Source of the DNA: an uncultured virus (IMG/VR IMGVR_UViG_3300042540_001015)
Lineage: Duplodnaviria; Heunggongvirae; Uroviricota; Caudoviricetes
DNA length: 27,381 nt
Reading direction: 5' to 3' (one strand)
IMG/VR virus record: IMGVR_UViG_3300042540_001015
The notes under the pieces were generated by a model that was given only the letters and a program-made list of their open reading frames with translations, was not told where the DNA came from and searched no databases. This document shows positions 10,098 to 16,619 of this stretch, piece after piece; within the stretch, counting starts at the first letter, position 1; every line of letters begins with the position of its first letter. A program made the translations under genes and the position numbers.

Positions 10098-11762
10098 ATG
10101 GCGAGCATAGAGAGGTGGATCGGCGGACCTGGGACGGGGAAGACCCGGCTGATCCAGGGCGAACTGACCGCGAGCCGCGAGGCCCTCGGCCTCTCGACGG
10201 CGGAGGTCGGGTGCTGCACGTTCACCCGCGCCGGGCGGGCGGAGTTGAGCGAGCGGGTGGCGGCCTCGTGGGGCTGCGAGCCCGAGGCTCTGACCAAGCA
10301 CGGTTGGTTCCGGACCGCGCACTCGATCGCGTTCAAGCAGGCCCAGATCGAGGAGGGTCGTCTCCTCGAAGGCGGAGACGGGGCCGAGTGGGTCAGCGAC
10401 GCCGTCGGCCAGAAGATCGTCGCCAAGCGGTCCCAGGACGGCGGGACCGAGTTCGAGAGCGGCGAGGGCAACAACTCGGCGACTCTCTCTCTCAGGGCCT
10501 GGGAGTTGGCCCGCCAAACCATGACCACGCTCTCCAGCGTGATCGAGTTGTGGTCGAGCATCGGCGACGACGCCCCGGGGATTTCAGAGGCCGAGTCGAT
10601 CGTCAGGAAGTACGAGATCGCGAAGACCCGCGAAGGGCGTATCGATTTCACCGACTTGGTGAGCCTCTACGCAGGCGTCAAGCACTGCCCGCAGGAGGGC
10701 CCGAGCGAGGTGCAGCCTGTCGGAGACGTTCCCGAGTCTCTCCGCGTCCTCGCGATCGACGAGGCCCAGGACTCGTCGGCGATCGTCGATCGAATCTGCC
10801 GTCGCCTCGCGTCGTCGCCCAACATGGAGAGAGTCTTGATCGTGGGGGACCCGTATCAATCCATCTTCGGTTTCGGCGGCTCAGACTTTCGCCACTTCCT
10901 CGCGTGGGACGCGGAGGAAAAAACGATGGAGCAAAGTTTCCGCTGCCCCGACATCGTGATGAAGTTGGGCGAGTCGTGCATTCGACAAATGAGAACGGGC
11001 TACCGCGACCGGGGCATCAAGCCAGCGACTCACGACGGGCGGATCGAGCACGCGTTTGACGTGACCGACGCGATCTCTCGAATCAAGCCGGACAAGTCGA
11101 CGCTGATCCTCGGCCGGTGTGCGTTCGCTCTCGCCGAGTACGAGGCGGAACTTACGACGGCGGGAATCCCGTACTCGTGGATCGACGCGTCGCCCGGCGG
11201 CAGTGCATTGTCTGGATACAGGGCGTTGTGGGACCTGGAGCACGGCGAGGTCGTGAGCGGACCGGAGTGGGCTGCCGCCGTCGCGATCCTGGCTGTGAAG
11301 CACAAGGAGTTGGGAAAACTCCTGCATCACGGTGAGAAGACCGCCTGGGCGAAGGGGAACAGATCGGACGTCGATCTCGTTCTGCCCATCCCAGAGTACC
11401 TGGAGAGGGCGGGCTGCGAGCAGCCGCTCATCGAACTGATCAAGGCGGGCAGGTGGGCCGAGGCGATGGACACAAAGCACGCCGCGAAGGCTGACGCGTG
11501 GCGGCGATGCGCGGTGTCGCACGGCCCCGAGTTGGCGACGAGCCCGAAGACTCGCCTCTCGACGATCCACTCGGCGAAAGGGTGCGAGGGCGACACGGTG
11601 ATCCTGTCCACGATTTCCTCGAAGGCAGTCGAGACGGCGAGGCTTTCACTCTCTTCGCGATGGGACGAGGAATGCCGCGTGAACTATGTGGCAGTGACCA
11701 GGGCGAGGGAGAATCTGATCGTGGTAGACGACGGAGGAAAGTACCGCCTGGAGTTGCCGTAA
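10098..11762 (+). CDS. UvrD/Rep-like SF1 helicase
   Basis: GGPGTGKT, TFTRA, IDEAQD, VGDPYQSIFGF, STIHSAKGCEGD, EECRVNYVAVTRAR. Confidence 0.92.
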   Translation: MASIERWIGGPGTGKTRLIQGELTASREALGLSTAEVGCCTFTRAGRAELSERVAASWGCEPEALTKHGWFRTAHSIAFKQAQIEEGRLLEGGDGAEWVSDAVGQKIVAKRSQDGGTEFESGEGNNSATLSLRAWELARQTMTTLSSVIELWSSIGDDAPGISEAESIVRKYEIAKTREGRIDFTDLVSLYAGVKHCPQEGPSEVQPVGDVPESLRVLAIDEAQDSSAIVDRICRRLASSPNMERVLIVGDPYQSIFGFGGSDFRHFLAWDAEEKTMEQSFRCPDIVMKLGESCIRQMRTGYRDRGIKPATHDGRIEHAFDVTDAISRIKPDKSTLILGRCAFALAEYEAELTTAGIPYSWIDASPGGSALSGYRALWDLEHGEVVSGPEWAAAVAILAVKHKELGKLLHHGEKTAWAKGNRSDVDLVLPIPEYLERAGCEQPLIELIKAGRWAEAMDTKHAAKADAWRRCAVSHGPELATSPKTRLSTIHSAKGCEGDTVILSTISSKAVETARLSLSSRWDEECRVNYVAVTRARENLIVVDDGGKYRLELP

Positions 11763-12559
11763 TGAAGACCCTGCTCGCGTTTCTCTTGCTCGCCGGTTCT
11801 GTGTTTGCTGGAACGATCGATCCAAAGGCCTCAGATCAGAAGCATCTCGATTACGGGAGCCAGTTCGAGTGCGTTGCCAAAATCTCATGCCGCTACACAA
11901 AGTCCGGCGTCACGGGATGGGCATCGTGCGTCATCATCTCAGAGCACTGGATCGTGACGGCCGCCCACGTCGTCGCGGAAGCCGAAGACTGGGTCGTGTA
12001 CGTCTCCGGCGAGAAGTATCCGCTCGACCGGGTCTACGTTCACGAAGACTTCGAGACAGGCAATGGCAACGACATCGCGGTCGGCCATTCGGAAAGAAAG
12101 ATTGCCCTGTCTTTCTTTCCGGCGTTGTACGGACAGGAGGACGAGCAGGGGCAGGTCGTCTCGATCTGCGGTCACGGCATCGCTGGCACGTTTGCGACCG
12201 GGCACGTCCTGGCCGACGGGAAGAAACGCGCGGGCTCGAACATGGTGGACTACGTCGACCCGAAGGGGCTCCTCGTGTGCTCAGTCGGCAGCGGCACGGC
12301 CACGCAACTGGAGTATCTGATCAGTCCTGGCGACTCGGGCGGCGGCCTATTCGTCGGCAAGGAATTGGCGGGCATCAACTCGGTCGTCATGTCGGTGGGC
12401 AGGGCCCCGCTCTCGAAGTGGGGCGACGAGTCTGGGCACACAAGAATCTCGAAACACAAGGAGTGGATTTGTGAAAGAGTTGCTGTTCGAGAAGGCCCCG
12501 GAGGAGAGGGACGGGCAGGCAAAAAAGAAGGTCTCGAAGCGGAAACGCCAGGAGACTGA
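11762..12559 (+). CDS. Secreted trypsin-like serine protease (S1)
   Basis: Signal peptide MKTLLAFLLLAGSVFA; triad motifs TAAH, NDIA, PGDSGG; TAATG coupling. Confidence 0.88.
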   Translation: MKTLLAFLLLAGSVFAGTIDPKASDQKHLDYGSQFECVAKISCRYTKSGVTGWASCVIISEHWIVTAAHVVAEAEDWVVYVSGEKYPLDRVYVHEDFETGNGNDIAVGHSERKIALSFFPALYGQEDEQGQVVSICGHGIAGTFATGHVLADGKKRAGSNMVDYVDPKGLLVCSVGSGTATQLEYLISPGDSGGGLFVGKELAGINSVVMSVGRAPLSKWGDESGHTRISKHKEWICERVAVREGPGGEGRAGKKEGLEAETPGD

Positions 12560-12968
12560 GGTCGTCTCGACGGCTTCGGACTGGGTCCCGGCCGAGCCCA
12601 AGCCCTACCTCGCCTCGATCGACGGCCACTACTCGTGCGACAAGTGCGGGATCACGCTCCTCGACCTCGTCGAGGTCCGGAAAGTCGACGGCCACGAGAA
12701 ATGGCTCGTGACTTGCGGCTGGTGGTGTATGCACTCTTGGCTCGTCGACCCGATCCCAGGCCTGATCGACGAACAGGACCGCAAGGACACGCAGACGGAA
12801 GCGTTTCGCGTCCGCGACGGCCTGTTTGCGGGCAAGACTTTCGACGAGATTGCGGCGACTGAAGTCGGACTGATGTATATCGAGGGGCTCGTGAAAAAGA
12901 GCAATCGCACCGTCTTGGCAGAAGCGGCCGCAAAATGGTTGACAGAAAACAAAGGACGGATACGATAA
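12471..12968 (+). CDS. Zn-ribbon protein with a small C-terminal GxFxGK domain
   Basis: CDKC...CGWWC; GLFAGKTFDEI...YIEGL resembles DUF3820/ExoX C-terminal-type motifs; AAGGAG SD. Confidence 0.65.
   Translation: MKELLFEKAPEERDGQAKKKVSKRKRQETEVVSTASDWVPAEPKPYLASIDGHYSCDKCGITLLDLVEVRKVDGHEKWLVTCGWWCMHSWLVDPIPGLIDEQDRKDTQTEAFRVRDGLFAGKTFDEIAATEVGLMYIEGLVKKSNRTVLAEAAAKWLTENKGRIR
12939..12966 (+). promoter_or_regulatory. Sigma70-type promoter overlapping a motif variant
   Basis: TTGACA-N16-TACGAT; GGACGGATACG spans the spacer and -10. Confidence 0.6.
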
Positions 12969-12971
12969 CCC

Positions 12972-13044
12972 ACACGTCACGGATTGGCGTGTATGGCCGA
13001 GAGGCCAGCACAACGGAATGGCTGGCCTCTCGGCCTCTTTTTTT
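12972..13044 (+). ncRNA. Candidate two-hairpin sRNA or attenuator leader
   Basis: Lies between a promoter and an intrinsic terminator; both loops contain ACGGA. Confidence 0.45.
12995..13044 (+). terminator. Intrinsic terminator
   Basis: Perfect 15-bp stem GGCCGAGAGGCCAGC/GCTGGCCTCTCGGCC followed by TCTTTTTTT. Confidence 0.8.
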
Positions 13045-13533
13045 ATGCCCGAAATTCTCGACGACTGGACCGTCGCCCAGGCCTGGGAGCACACATACGG
13101 CTCCCGTCCTCGCCCACAGTGGCAGGACATGGACGAGGCCAAACTCTGCGAACTCGACGCCGTAGTCGCCTCGTATTTCGACGACGAGAGTCTCGAAGGA
13201 CGCAAGCGAGGCGCGGCGGCCATGATGTACTTGGAGCCGAGGCTCGTCCGCTCGCAACTGCCGCCTGGACCACGCAAGCGAGAGCGGCAGCACGTCTCAG
13301 AGATCGTGATCCGCTCCCTGACTCGCCACTGCAAGCGGCTCGGACTTCCTGGGCCGTGCTACAGCCACGCGATCCGCTGCCTTCGCAGTTGGTGGCTGGA
13401 ACGGCTCGATGAAGATGACTGGCATCTCATCTGGGACTCGCTCGGCATCAGCGGCGACAACGTGACCGATCAGTCGATTTGGGATTTTTACAAGTTCGCC
13501 GGAGCCCAAGTCCGGTACTCAAGTTGGAGTTAA
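13045..13533 (+). CDS. Unknown protein, paralog A of 14079..14570
   Basis: Shared motifs LDDWTVAQAW, PRLV...LP, WHLIWDSLG, DFYKFAG. Confidence 0.75.
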   Translation: MPEILDDWTVAQAWEHTYGSRPRPQWQDMDEAKLCELDAVVASYFDDESLEGRKRGAAAMMYLEPRLVRSQLPPGPRKRERQHVSEIVIRSLTRHCKRLGLPGPCYSHAIRCLRSWWLERLDEDDWHLIWDSLGISGDNVTDQSIWDFYKFAGAQVRYSSWS

Positions 13534-13536
13534 ACC

Positions 13537-14004
13537 ATGCCCGCAGGCAACCCGCAGGTAATCGAGTCCCTTCAGTCCTCGCTTCGTCTCCACTGGTCGG
13601 CGATCGAGGCCTACCTCGCCCAGAGCGTTCACTTCGCGACCTGGGGCTACCCGAAACTCGCAGCCGTCTACGCAGAAGAGTCCGAGGACGAGAAGGCTCA
13701 CGCCAAGCGTCTCATCGAACGCCTGGAGTTTTTCAACGTCGCCCCGGACATCGACCACGACCCCGTCGAGTGGCCTCGCCACGACTTCCCGGGCGTGCTC
13801 GACGCCAACTACGAGATGGAGTTGCAGGCCACGACCGTCGAGCGTAGCGGCTACACGATCGCCCTGGCGTCCGACGACCCGATCTCGGCGGAGTTGTTCC
13901 GCGTGAACCTCGTGTCGAGCGAGGCCTCGCTCATCGAGATCGAGGCGATCCAAGAGGTGATCGGGCAGATCGGGCTCGACAACTACCTCGCGAACCAGAC
14001 GTGA
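13537..14004 (+). CDS. bfr: Bacterioferritin-like protein with altered metal/heme ligands
   Basis: Gap-free manual alignment to E. coli Bfr (from memory): GNPQVI, WGYPKL, ESEDEKAHAKRLIERL, IGLDNYL; GGAG SD. Confidence 0.85.
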   Translation: MPAGNPQVIESLQSSLRLHWSAIEAYLAQSVHFATWGYPKLAAVYAEESEDEKAHAKRLIERLEFFNVAPDIDHDPVEWPRHDFPGVLDANYEMELQATTVERSGYTIALASDDPISAELFRVNLVSSEASLIEIEAIQEVIGQIGLDNYLANQT

Positions 14005-14078
14005 GTCGCGGCATCGACTAATTAAAAACGGGCACGTTGCCCAAGGGTTGGTTTAGTCACTTACTGGAGGGTTTAGTG

Positions 14079-14570
14079 ATGAAGATTTCTTGTCTTGAAA
14101 ACTGGTCGGTCGCTGACGCGTGGAGAAGTTGCTACCGCGCAGAGCCAAAATTTCCTCTGAAGCCAAGGACGCAGAAGATCGGCGATTACACGGACTGCGA
14201 TCACGCAGTCGCCCGCTGCTTCGGAAGGATTACGAAAGACAGTCTTGCGAAAGCGGACGCGGCCATCCGGACAATTTACCCAAAGTTGGTTCTTTACCCT
14301 CTCCCGAGCGCGGCGGCGACTCCGGCTGAGAAGATCACCTACCTGAAAACCGTAGTCCCGAAGATCGTCGAGGAATACGCGAGAGAAGACGCGATACCGA
14401 AAAGCGAATGGCGGAGGACGGTCGCTGCCTTGAAGCGTTGGGATATGAACGGAGTCGACTACTGGTTCCTCGTCTGGGACGCCTTGGGCGTGGGGCACAG
14501 GGACACAATGGAACTTGAGGACTTCTACAAGTTCGCGGGGCTGATGCTGCAATACACGGATTACGCATAA
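14079..14570 (+). CDS. Unknown protein, paralog B of 13045..13533
   Basis: LENWSVADAW, PKLV...LP, WFLVWDALG, DFYKFAG; GGAGG SD. Confidence 0.75.
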   Translation: MKISCLENWSVADAWRSCYRAEPKFPLKPRTQKIGDYTDCDHAVARCFGRITKDSLAKADAAIRTIYPKLVLYPLPSAAATPAEKITYLKTVVPKIVEEYAREDAIPKSEWRRTVAALKRWDMNGVDYWFLVWDALGVGHRDTMELEDFYKFAGLMLQYTDYA

Positions 14571-14589
14571 GGCTGAAGCGACAGTCTTA

Positions 14590-14619
14590 GTACGGATACA
14601 CGCACCGGCAAGGAGGCCG
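14590..14619 (+). promoter_or_regulatory. Repeated motif followed by an SD-containing mini-hairpin
   Basis: GTACGGATACACG; CGGC-AAGGAG-GCCG. Confidence 0.5.
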
Positions 14620-14621
14620 CG

Positions 14622-15398
14622 ATGCCATTGGTGATTGCAGTTTGGCCCAACGACTCGATTAGCGTTATTCAGTGCCCTGCTGGCTTCAGCATGGCTGAAC
14701 TCTTCTGGGCTATCGACGAAGAGGGCGACCCTACGATTACGAAGTTGTACTTGATCAAGCGAGAGGACAGGTGGTCTCACGCGACTTTTGATTTTGAACG
14801 CTGCGATGATCAGCCGGAATTTTCGTCTGGCGTCATTCGCGTCGCTATGGGAGGCGGAAAGGTGGACGTCAATTCAGGAAAAAGAAAGAGACTTCACTGG
14901 CCCAAGAACATCGTCCGCGATGCGTACAGGTACATGGGATATAGGACCGATGCGCATGAGGCAAAAACCATGACGGGGTCGCAGATTTCTGAAATGCCAG
15001 CAGAACCAACAACCGTGTATGAAGTGAAAGAAATCAGGTCAATGGAGTCATTTTGTGGCGTTTACTTTGCATTTAATGAGGACGGCTCTTGCCATTACGT
15101 CGGAGAGGCCGAGGACGTCACGGGCAGAGTCCGACAAAGCAGAGAAGAAATTGGCTCAAGAAAGATTGGATTCATTCGCTGCGAGTTGCACGAGAGAAAG
15201 CGAATTGAGGCATATTTCGTAGCCATGCTCGACCCTCCTGGAAATGGTATTTCTACGCACAGGATGCTCAAGTCGGCTGAAGAGAAAAAAGCAAAGAAAA
15301 AAGCCAGGATGCTTCAGCGGATTGAAGAGAAAAAAGCAAAAAGCACGGACGTCAATGTCGGTCAAAACCCTCTCCAAGAAACACAAGCCGTACTCTGA
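14622..15398 (+). CDS. Protein with a C-terminal GIY-YIG-like nuclease domain
   Basis: CGVYFAF...CHYVGEAEDVTGRV...IEAYFVAMLDPPGN; visibly more AT-rich than flanking genes. Confidence 0.65.
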   Translation: MPLVIAVWPNDSISVIQCPAGFSMAELFWAIDEEGDPTITKLYLIKREDRWSHATFDFERCDDQPEFSSGVIRVAMGGGKVDVNSGKRKRLHWPKNIVRDAYRYMGYRTDAHEAKTMTGSQISEMPAEPTTVYEVKEIRSMESFCGVYFAFNEDGSCHYVGEAEDVTGRVRQSREEIGSRKIGFIRCELHERKRIEAYFVAMLDPPGNGISTHRMLKSAEEKKAKKKARMLQRIEEKKAKSTDVNVGQNPLQETQAVL

Positions 15399-16269
15399 CC
15401 TCCTCTCCGAGGACGAAGACCCGTTCTCGACGAACAAGGTCACGGGCTACTCACTGAACGTCCCGATCATCGGCACCTGCCAGCCTACGATCGTCTGCGC
15501 AGACACCTGCTACTTCGCCGCAGGCCCCTCGACCTGGACTGCAAGTCTCAGGAAGCAGCACCGTCTGATGAACTCGATCAAAGCCGATCCCCGGGGCGTC
15601 GCGGAGCGAATCGTGAAGTCGGCGCGTCGGAAGAAGATGACGTTCATCCGCTGGAACGGTGGCGGAGACTTGTTCGAGGAGTCGGTCGCGTGTCTCGACG
15701 CTGTGGCCGTCGCGATGCCGGACATTCCCCAGTGGGTCGTGAGCCGCATTCCGAAGATCGCTGCCCAAGTCACGCCCAGGCCTAACGTCTACTTGCACTT
15801 CAGTGTCGACCGCTCGTCGTGGGCTCGGCTCGAAGAGTTTCGCGGCCTCGCCCCGGCTGGCCTCCAGTGGTTCTGGTCGTATCAGTGCGACAAGGACGAG
15901 CAGCCCGCGAGCGGCGACATCGCCCCGGTGATCTTCCGCGACGGCTATGACCCGAAGGGGTCGCCATTGTTTGGAAACGATTGCCCACTCAATTCAAACG
16001 AGGACATCACCAACGTCTGCGAGGGATGCAGACGCTGCTTCAACGGAGGGGCCGTTGAAAGGGCAAAGGAATGCCGTGGATTGTCTACGAGACGAGGAAC
16101 ATCGTCACAGGAGACTTGTACGTCGGAGTCTGCAAAACAACTCGACCTAACTTTCACCTCTACCTCGGCAGCGGATCGGTCCTGCGAAACGCGGTCCGAA
16201 AGTACGGACGAGATTACTTCGAGCGGACGACGCTCATCGAAGTCGAGACGGCAGAGGAGGCCTACTTAA
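15355..16269 (+). CDS. Gp88-like putative Fe-S (radical-SAM-like) protein
   Basis: TCQPTIVCADTCY (Cx5Cx3C), IRWNGGGDLF, NVYLHFSVD, CP...CEGCRRC; about 65 C-terminal codons overlap the next gene. Confidence 0.7.
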   Translation: MSVKTLSKKHKPYSDLLSEDEDPFSTNKVTGYSLNVPIIGTCQPTIVCADTCYFAAGPSTWTASLRKQHRLMNSIKADPRGVAERIVKSARRKKMTFIRWNGGGDLFEESVACLDAVAVAMPDIPQWVVSRIPKIAAQVTPRPNVYLHFSVDRSSWARLEEFRGLAPAGLQWFWSYQCDKDEQPASGDIAPVIFRDGYDPKGSPLFGNDCPLNSNEDITNVCEGCRRCFNGGAVERAKECRGLSTRRGTSSQETCTSESAKQLDLTFTSTSAADRSCETRSESTDEITSSGRRSSKSRRQRRPT

Positions 16270-16619
16270 TCGAGGCGTCCGTCGTCGACGAGGAGTGGGT
16301 TGCGAGACCAGACACCTACAACCTCAAGACCGGCGGCATGGGAGGCATGGGATTTAGTTTCCCCATGCCAGAGGCGGCGAAGGAAAAGATCAGGCAGTAC
16401 AGGCTCGGAAGAAAGCACACGGAGGAGACGAAGTCAAAAATCAGAGACTCCGTGAAAGGACGAGTGTGGACTGATGAAGATCGCAGAAGGTGCTCGGAGG
16501 CCGCAACCAGATCAAACACAGGCCGAGTTTTGAGCGAGGAGACGCGACGCCTCCTGTCCGAGCGACAGAAAGCGGCGTGGGCGAGGGGTAGGAAGTCACG
16601 CAAGGGAGATGCCACTTGA
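16071..16619 (+). CDS. Free-standing GIY-YIG homing endonuclease (Seg-like) with NUMOD3-like repeats
   Basis: IVYETRN..TGDLYVG, YLGSG, KYG, YNLKTGG; GRKHTEETKSKI-type repeats; AAGGA SD-like sequence immediately upstream. Confidence 0.85.
   Translation: MPWIVYETRNIVTGDLYVGVCKTTRPNFHLYLGSGSVLRNAVRKYGRDYFERTTLIEVETAEEAYLIEASVVDEEWVARPDTYNLKTGGMGGMGFSFPMPEAAKEKIRQYRLGRKHTEETKSKIRDSVKGRVWTDEDRRRCSEAATRSNTGRVLSEETRRLLSERQKAAWARGRKSRKGDAT

Follow-up and report, generated by a model that had tools for sequence, protein, structure and literature searches.

Why a bacteriophage should carry a ferritin-like gene enclosed by two copies of an otherwise unrecognised gene is the question raised by a contig from a lake-water phage, the uncultured-virus record IMGVR_UViG_3300042540_001015 of IMG/VR (27,381 nt; this whole stretch of DNA is hereafter referred to as the window). 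In this contig, a bacterioferritin-like (Bfr-like) gene lies between the paralogs A and B, and the initial annotation interpreted the trio as a dedicated three-gene module, in which the flanking proteins would be heteromeric partners of a ferritin-like cage or its cargo. Our comparative analyses point to three genes that probably moved independently rather than to one dedicated three-gene machine. We consider it fairly probable that A and B represent an accessory family of the replication module that is orphan, restricted to phages and non-enzymatic, and that here stands beside an independently mobile, remodelled ferritin. The three genes are listed below, with the ratio of nonsynonymous to synonymous substitution rates (dN/dS) calculated for the window against the related viral contig L001.

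13045..13533, + strand: paralog A, 162 aa, a member of the orphan all-helical family; dN/dS 0.18; GC 0.616
13537..14004, + strand: Bfr-like ferritin, 155 aa; dN/dS 0.18; GC 0.637, and 0.885 at third codon positions (GC3)
14079..14570, + strand: paralog B, 163 aa, from the other deep clade of the family; dN/dS 0.21; GC 0.553

The flanking protein family

The proteins encoded by A and B could be aligned from end to end (25% identity, 41/164; 62 bits, BLASTP E 1e-17). The positions of the two open reading frames (ORFs) on the + strand and their sizes of about 162 aa were confirmed (162 and 163 aa), and all the motifs listed in the initial annotation were present in both copies. The end-to-end alignment and the common motifs therefore show that the paralogy of A and B is real. 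Members of the family have two domains: the N-terminal one opens with the sequence W-T-V-x-x-A-W, and the C-terminal one comprises four helices and carries a DWF-x-x-x-DALG motif. The conserved columns are Trp8, Ala13, Trp14, Asp38, Ala59, Pro65, Trp126, Gly134, Phe148, Tyr149 and Ala152. The invariant residues are nearly all Trp, Phe, Tyr, Ala, Pro or Gly, plus one Asp, and include no catalytic-type polar set. No conserved Cys or His was found in the family in alignments of 11, 15 and 29 members, which argues against an enzyme and against a metal or cluster site. Most of the proteins are acidic to neutral, with a pI of 4.3–6 for 24 of the 29 members.

Neither A nor B was assigned to a family in Pfam, PHROGs, NCBIfam or PADLOC, and 48 new relatives yielded no Pfam or PHROG family above noise. 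With the Pfam threshold relaxed to E≤10, no family was common to more than 2 of the 29 members, and the best E value in a sequence profile search of the PDB was 0.19. The description of the flanking proteins as belonging to an unrecognised family was thus borne out in all of these databases. The family is also small, since only 11 clusters were retrieved in a profile search of 5.8 billion clustered proteins, and an exhaustive HMMER search of 1.84 billion representatives returned 49 sequences at E≤1e-3, 16 at E≤1e-10 and 10 at E≤1e-30. Twenty of these 49 representatives are full length (159–229 aa) and 29 correspond to the C-terminal half only (76–136 aa); the C-terminal domain alone also matches many proteins of about 80–110 aa. 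At least one of the C-half-only representatives (P0024) is a fragment of a full-length protein (compare L024), and many of these proteins start with Met and have a short N-terminus of their own.

No tblastn match to A or B was found in cultured phages (50,697 records), nor any blastn match to the A/Bfr/B locus; the prokaryote genomes yielded none in two pattern-limited scans, and the metagenome contigs contained only two short loci with the family. A viral scan with the most distant subgroup, A6, returned no relative. Fused longer forms (402–2000 aa) were not found either, which is weak evidence by the standard of that search. A and B are thus two anciently diverged members of an undescribed all-helical family of about 160 aa, present so far only in contigs of uncultured phages. 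In the literature on phage bacterioferritins, ferritin-like head genes and encapsulins, we found nothing on this family.

The AlphaFold model of the whole protein has seven helices (pLDDT 82.9), and that of the C-terminal domain has four (pLDDT 94.9, pTM 0.85). The family went unmatched in the structure searches proposed in the initial annotation: with both models, Foldseek gave no match at E≤0.001 in the PDB or BFVD, and the best Z scores of an exhaustive VIA fold search (5.7 and 7.0) were below the noise level stated for helical folds. Histone folds, integrase N-terminal domains, bromodomains and the helical segments of Na+/H+ exchangers were considered as relatives and rejected, as all were within noise. 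In the ESM Atlas, the match to YjiT_N (0.83) was at noise level, and the C-terminal half of B led to unnamed clusters of 75–95 aa (0.94–0.95) and to EF-hand pairs and DUF7207 (0.91–0.92), which we treat as leads only; neither DUF7207 nor EF-hand was among the Pfam matches of any of the 29 members at E≤10. A and B therefore appear to have no described family or clear fold relative in these sequence and model comparisons, a missing match that does not prove a new fold.

A further possibility is that these small proteins bind DNA or regulate transcription in the early or middle phase of infection, with the C-terminal four-helix domain as a helix-turn-helix (HTH)-like or histone-fold-like DNA-binding unit. 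According to our own reading, the stretch (Y/F)-x-x-E-D-G-I-P-K-x-E-Y-x-x-x-x-x-A-L-K would have the Ala...Gly...hydrophobic spacing of an HTH. Furthermore, the weak structural neighbours include histone folds (Z 4–5), integrase N-terminal domains, Cnu and YmgB, CI and XRE HTH proteins appear at E 2–5 in BFVD, and the gene is located within the replication module. However, all the structural matches lie below the noise stated for the tools, no Pfam HTH model was found in any of the 29 members even at E≤10, the pI values given above are low, and the ESM Atlas leads point to EF-hand pairs. We regard a DNA-binding role as unlikely.

Neighbourhoods and descent of the three genes

All genes of the window lie on the + strand and form a phage replication module, the GC content of which is 0.61 (0.609). 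Among the products are helicases, an exonuclease, a polymerase/primase, a UvrD-like helicase, a trypsin-like protease of secreted type and GP88, together with GIY-YIG/NUMOD3 and VRR-NUC nucleases, and the tail genes lie at the far end. We identified the flanking family in 15 distinct viral contigs, obtained in three viral scans and representing about five lineages. A Bfr-like gene is located directly downstream of the family member in 8 of these contigs (L001, L017, L019, L020, L021, L024, L025 and L026), with a gap of 3–4 nt in all of them and in the window, whereas the fetched flanks of the other 7 (L002–L007 and L022) contain none. The complete A-Bfr-B trio was found in only 1 of the 15 contigs (L001), in addition to the window and the near-identical record G001. 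Conversely, a profile scan for the Bfr-like gene identified 74 viral loci, and a family member is present within 3 kb in 6 of them and absent from 68. At the remaining Bfr-like loci, 16 adjoining ORFs were compared with the family, and none shows even remote similarity (hhalign probability ≤0.3%).

The absence of a Bfr-like gene from 7 of the 15 contigs and of the family from 68 of the 74 Bfr-like loci mostly refutes the three-gene module proposed in the initial annotation. Co-occurrence with bfr-like genes holds for the adjacency of A and the Bfr-like gene in 8 contigs and the window and fails as a general rule; in both directions, homologs largely occur without the proposed neighbour. A complex prediction for the Bfr-like protein and A, with alignments as input, gave a score of 0.00 and a mark of 0.32, and, run without controls, speaks neither for nor against binding. 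The idea that A or B is cargo inside the ferritin cage was rejected, as nothing supports it, and a folded 18-kDa protein would be an unlikely guest of a cavity of the size of that of Bfr.

Where the context was readable, the family gene was located among DNA replication and recombination genes. In the phage group of the window, it follows the genes for the UvrD-like helicase, the trypsin-like protease and a 160-aa protein. The Bfr-like gene is missing from L002, which is otherwise syntenic with the window and has its genes in the order UvrD helicase, trypsin-like protease, 160-aa protein, methyltransferase, family member, phrog_18407 protein, GIY-YIG/NUMOD3 and VRR-NUC. The family member of the unrelated phage L022 (GC of about 0.5) has a DEDDh exonuclease gene on one side and Mre11/Rad50-like genes on the other.

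When 41 rows were placed in a maximum-likelihood tree, the Bfr-adjacent copies formed one clade (11 rows, support 90/72) and the B copies a separate clade (7 rows, support 100/99), sister to L022, P0017, P0020 and P0021, with the single copies of L002–L007 as a third group. Because they fall in separate deep clades, A and B are old paralogs that have been brought together, and not the products of a tandem duplication. The region downstream of B is relevant to how this occurred, and its first gene is the following:

14622..15398, + strand: GIY-YIG-like gene, encoding a putative homing-endonuclease-type nuclease; match to PF01541 below the cut-off; GC 0.492

The GC contents of B (0.553) and of this gene contrast with those of A (0.616), the Bfr-like gene (0.637) and the window. 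Synonymous divergence (dS) between the window and L001 falls from 1.58 for A to 0.69 for the Bfr-like gene and 0.19 for B, a mosaic that would be expected if B had spread recently. Both B and the GIY-YIG-like gene are present in L001 and both are absent from L017, L019 and L020; in L019, a CoiA-like nuclease gene occupies their slot. Together, B and the GIY-YIG-like gene look like a later insertion, as judged from sequence comparison, and the separate clades and deviant GC of B indicate that the sandwich was assembled secondarily. We infer that the slot downstream of the Bfr-like gene is a variable region collecting nuclease-type mobile genes, and that B entered it with one of them. From the tree, composition and synteny, the Bfr-like gene would have landed directly behind A in one lineage, where the two are probably co-transcribed and translationally coupled; B would have arrived later and separately, with the GIY-YIG-like gene, in the slot filled by the CoiA-like nuclease gene in other relatives.

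The same region suggests a more specific history, in which B is the cargo or target of the adjacent GIY-YIG-like homing-type nuclease, as a co-converted, cleavage-resistant allele, with the family gene as the homing site. The second copy would then reflect the spread of a selfish element rather than a need for two paralogs. The adjacency of the two genes, their joint presence or absence and their low GC fit this history, as does the fact that B is the gene of the stretch most similar between the window and L001 (by the dS values above), and other relatives have a different nuclease in the same slot. However, the GIY-YIG match (PF01541, E 0.0023, 18.7 bits) is below the Pfam cut-off of 22.6, and B is under purifying selection and keeps all the family motifs, so it is probably used. 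Neither a cleavage site nor a homing event was observed, and no joint skipping B was found in the sequences, all of them contigs, from four lake or freshwater metagenome runs; the parts of the locus that they do not cover are not interpretable. We consider this history of B very improbable.

All three genes are real, because they are under purifying selection, with the dN/dS values listed above for the window against L001 and values of 0.08 for A and 0.06 for the Bfr-like gene between L019 and L020 (range 0.06–0.21). A longer ORF for A is possible from the ATG at 13018, but relatives begin at MPEIL, and 13045 is therefore taken as the start of A. The A/Bfr/B junctions are bridged by contigs from other lake-water metagenome runs (X4, 12400–14230; X7, 13334–14433; X9, 13171–14169), and the gene order is therefore not an assembly artefact.

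The initial annotation also placed the flanking genes behind a promoter and a structured leader of their own, and both were recovered before A:

12939..12966, + strand: TTGACA-16 nt-TACGAT, a site resembling a sigma-70 promoter, which overlaps the upstream gene (12471..12968) at its 3' end
12972..13044, + strand: structured, intrinsic-terminator-like leader, with hairpins at 12972–12992 and 12995–13035 followed by a U-run

The promoter-like site has 10 of 12 matches to the sigma-70 consensus and is unique in the window; its function as a promoter is a prediction from the sequence. The TTGACA and GGATAC..TAACC blocks are invariant in 6/6 aligned relatives, the A proteins of which are only 42–64% identical. 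The leader, with a small first hairpin and a long, perfect second one, has a folding energy of −46.5 kcal/mol (z −7.45; 0 of 200 shuffles as good), and a single base separates the end of the U-run from the ATG of A. At the same position, L017, L019 and L020 carry a hairpin that differs in sequence, and L024 has none. A terminator-like site was also flagged at the leader by site prediction; a search of 12800–14700 with Rfam gave only a chance snoRNA match (E 0.92), leaving the leader without an Rfam family. The covariation calculated by RNAalifold (one pair) was not used, as MAFFT had misregistered two versions of the stem. The leader thus resembles an intrinsic terminator downstream of a promoter-like site. 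Its role could be to close off the operon upstream, to act as an attenuator in front of A, or to serve in RNA processing or stability.

No Shine-Dalgarno sequence was found for A; the GGAG of the Bfr-like gene lies inside the 3' end of A, and B is preceded by GGAGGG. The Bfr-like gene starts 3 nt after the stop codon of A, with no promoter-like site between the two. A single transcript over A, the Bfr-like gene and perhaps B is plausible from this arrangement; of 24 sequencing runs considered for RNA evidence, none is recorded as RNA.

Low GC (0.54–0.56 vs about 0.61) characterises the whole stretch 14001–16000, in which lie B, the GIY-YIG-like gene (0.49) and the first part of GP88. The GP88 ORF (15244..16269) and the GIY-YIG/NUMOD3 gene that follows it (16071..16619) share about 200 nt, and this ORF extends about 95 aa beyond its portion alignable to relatives.

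The middle gene and its phage-borne branch

The identification of the middle gene as bfr-like was upheld by its match to the Pfam Ferritin family (PF00210, E 2.2e-14, 54 bits, cut-off 24.5), and residues 4–154 of its product align with solved bacterioferritins (47 distinct PDB Bfr sequences aligned, best E 5e-13). It does not reach the NCBIfam equivalog TIGR00754 (bfr), with 55 bits against a cut-off of 125.55. On these alignments, the protein is a genuine ferritin-fold protein of bacterioferritin type, of full length, but not an orthodox Bfr. This middle gene alone of the three resembles the Bfr of Pseudomonas aeruginosa (BfrB, 5d8q/3is7) and Escherichia coli (1bcf), with a C-terminal IGLDNYLANQ helix, a length of 155 aa and an acidic pI of 4.4; it differs from them in being carried by phages, usually between portal and prohead-protease genes.

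The six ferroxidase ligands are Glu18, Glu51, His54, Glu94, Glu127 and His130, in the numbering of P. aeruginosa and E. coli Bfr. Three of the six are kept in the phage protein (Glu52, His55 and Glu95), and the other positions are occupied by His19, Ser128 and Ser131. The correspondences below were read off the alignment with the PDB Bfr chains, and conservation was assessed in 35 relatives.

Bfr Glu18: His19, invariant
Bfr Glu51: Glu52, kept, nearly invariant
Bfr Met52 (haem ligand): Lys53, variable (K, R, T and others)
Bfr His54: His55, kept, invariant
Bfr Glu94: Glu95, kept, Glu or Asp in relatives
Bfr Glu127: Ser128, invariant, with an adjoining and nearly invariant Glu129
Bfr His130: Ser131, variable

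Over the full length, the residues invariant in the 35 phage Bfr-branch sequences are His19, Tyr26, His55, Arg62, Glu102, Asp114 and Ser128, and Glu52 and Glu129 are nearly so. The pattern at the ligand positions points to a metal site in this branch that has been rebuilt (His-rich and one carboxylate short) and is probably not dead. The Bfr-like gene is a separate cassette; the bacterioferritin branch to which it belongs is carried by phages, lacks the haem methionine and retains half of the di-iron ligands.

The usual location of this branch is the head module. Among the 74 Bfr-like loci, 45 have the gene strictly between the portal (PF04860) and S78 prohead-protease (PF04586) genes; 3 further loci contain both head genes and an over-extended ORF call, and 3 more, at a locus end, contain the portal gene only (the head-module loci are among L029–L091, e.g., L029:1386-5069 and L056:1127-5060). 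A remodelled ferritin is therefore found in the head-morphogenesis operon of many uncultured phages, and in the window a gene of this phage-specific branch sits in an unusual slot. A preprint mentions a bacterioferritin gene in a temperate Nitrosospira phage; in the literature on phage bacterioferritins and head-module ferritin-like genes, we found nothing on the branch described here. The loci of the relatives, though not the window, resemble encapsulin systems with ferritin-like cargo in that a ferritin-like gene lies beside HK97-type head genes. The window differs from such systems, because its Bfr-like gene is in the replication module and A and B are neither a shell nor a recognisable cargo.

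A narrowed form of the module from the initial annotation would have A, and possibly B, work specifically with the Bfr-like protein, for instance in assembling or loading the cage, in regulating it or as an adaptor bound to its surface, with an A-Bfr(-B) operon acting on host iron or redox state. This branch is out of its usual slot exactly in those phages that have A in front of it, and the pair is kept in 8/8 A-clade contigs with context, plus the window. The 3-nt gap between A and the Bfr-like gene, the GGAG of the latter inside A, and the conserved promoter-like site and leader before A, with none between the two genes, point in the same direction. However, these observations have to be set against the 68 Bfr-like loci without a family member, the neighbours of which lack even remote similarity to the family, and the 7 family-bearing contigs without a Bfr-like gene. 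Furthermore, B is of a different clade and a different GC, and the whole module is syntenic in these phages, so that adjacency is expected by descent.

A known partner of Bfr, encoded in its genomic neighbourhood, is Bfd, the bacterioferritin-associated [2Fe-2S] ferredoxin. Bfd proteins are about 64–70 aa long and have four cluster-binding cysteines. A and B resemble Bfd in being small proteins encoded beside a bfr-type gene, but they are of about 160 aa, all-helical and without a Pfam match, and, unlike Bfd, they have no conserved Cys or His for an iron-sulfur cluster or metal site in any of the three alignments mentioned above. Overall, we think it improbable that A is dedicated to the Bfr-like protein. 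A bolder version of this idea would make the A-clade protein a new-fold partner of the haem-less phage ferritin cage, in a two-component metal-handling unit without a described counterpart. The Bfr-like cassette would have left the head operon and come under the promoter and leader of A, to which it would be coupled, and A (with B as a paralog of second specificity) would dock on, load or target the cage, for instance so that iron of the host, or another metal, is stripped or buffered while replication proceeds. We give this version somewhat less credence still.

Candidate roles and surrounding genes

If the flanking proteins are, as we favour, an orphan accessory family of the replication module, they would most likely act without catalysis, by binding another macromolecule early in infection. 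We tentatively suggest, as a possibility that falls clearly short of being probable, that the family binds a host or phage protein as an adaptor or inhibitor in host take-over or counter-defence, in which case having two diverged copies would allow a broader set of targets. No other gene of the stretch is as poorly conserved as A, at 64% identity as opposed to 70–92%, and its dN of 0.29 exceeds those of the Bfr-like gene (0.12) and B (0.04). A protein-binding role would fit the lack of catalytic residues, this fast divergence of A, the coexistence of divergent paralogs and the presence of methyltransferase and homing-nuclease neighbours. By functional analogy, A and B resemble the small host-binding ORFans of phage early regions engaged in anti-defence or take-over, in their size, lack of a catalytic signature, restriction to phages, early/replication location, fast divergence, divergent paralogs and the same kinds of neighbours. 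They differ in having no relation in sequence or fold to any described member.

Several points weigh against the favoured interpretation. The A-Bfr adjacency is kept in every member of the A clade with known context (8 contigs and the window), down to 42% identity in A, and a functional tie within this clade is therefore possible; however, as the whole module is syntenic in these phages, such adjacency would also be expected from common descent alone. The binding role is itself suggested by residue composition, context and the fast divergence of A, whereas the small DNA-binding helical domains that recur among the weak matches would be more in keeping with DNA binding. Finally, the terms phage-only and replication module refer to the 15 contigs from about five lineages.

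The locus illustrates that a symmetric-looking sandwich of paralogs can arise through separate insertions into a variable slot, and need not be a designed module. The phage Bfr branch changes place between head operon and replication module, a mobility relevant to why phages carry ferritins. The flanking proteins constitute an undescribed phage family with a confident four-helix model of the C-terminal domain, recurring in the replication modules of uncultured freshwater phages, and they are a clean target for structural work and for host take-over and counter-defence screens. These findings do not yet make any long-standing question directly testable.

Other genes of the module also have distinctive features. 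The gene at 12471–12968 encodes a conserved protein of 160–165 aa, of no known family, that is located directly upstream of A in all syntenic relatives (49–81% identity); the N-terminus of this protein is rich in lysine, and zinc could be bound by its C-x-x-C ... C-x-x-x-C pattern. The trypsin-like serine protease gene (11747–12559; PF00089, E 3.4e-15) lies inside the replication module, and its product has a signal-peptide-like N-terminus (MKTLLAFLLLAGSVFAG); its position is kept in L001, L002, L017, L019 and L020. The UvrD-like helicase (window 10098–11762) has 554 aa in the window and 555 aa in L020, against about 837 aa in L001, L002 and L019 (compared at L019:1190-3700, L001:2191-4710 and L002:893-3406). 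The extra 280 aa of the L019 protein match the intein splicing domain PF14890 (36.1 bits, cut-off 35.8), so that some of these phages have the intein and others lack it.

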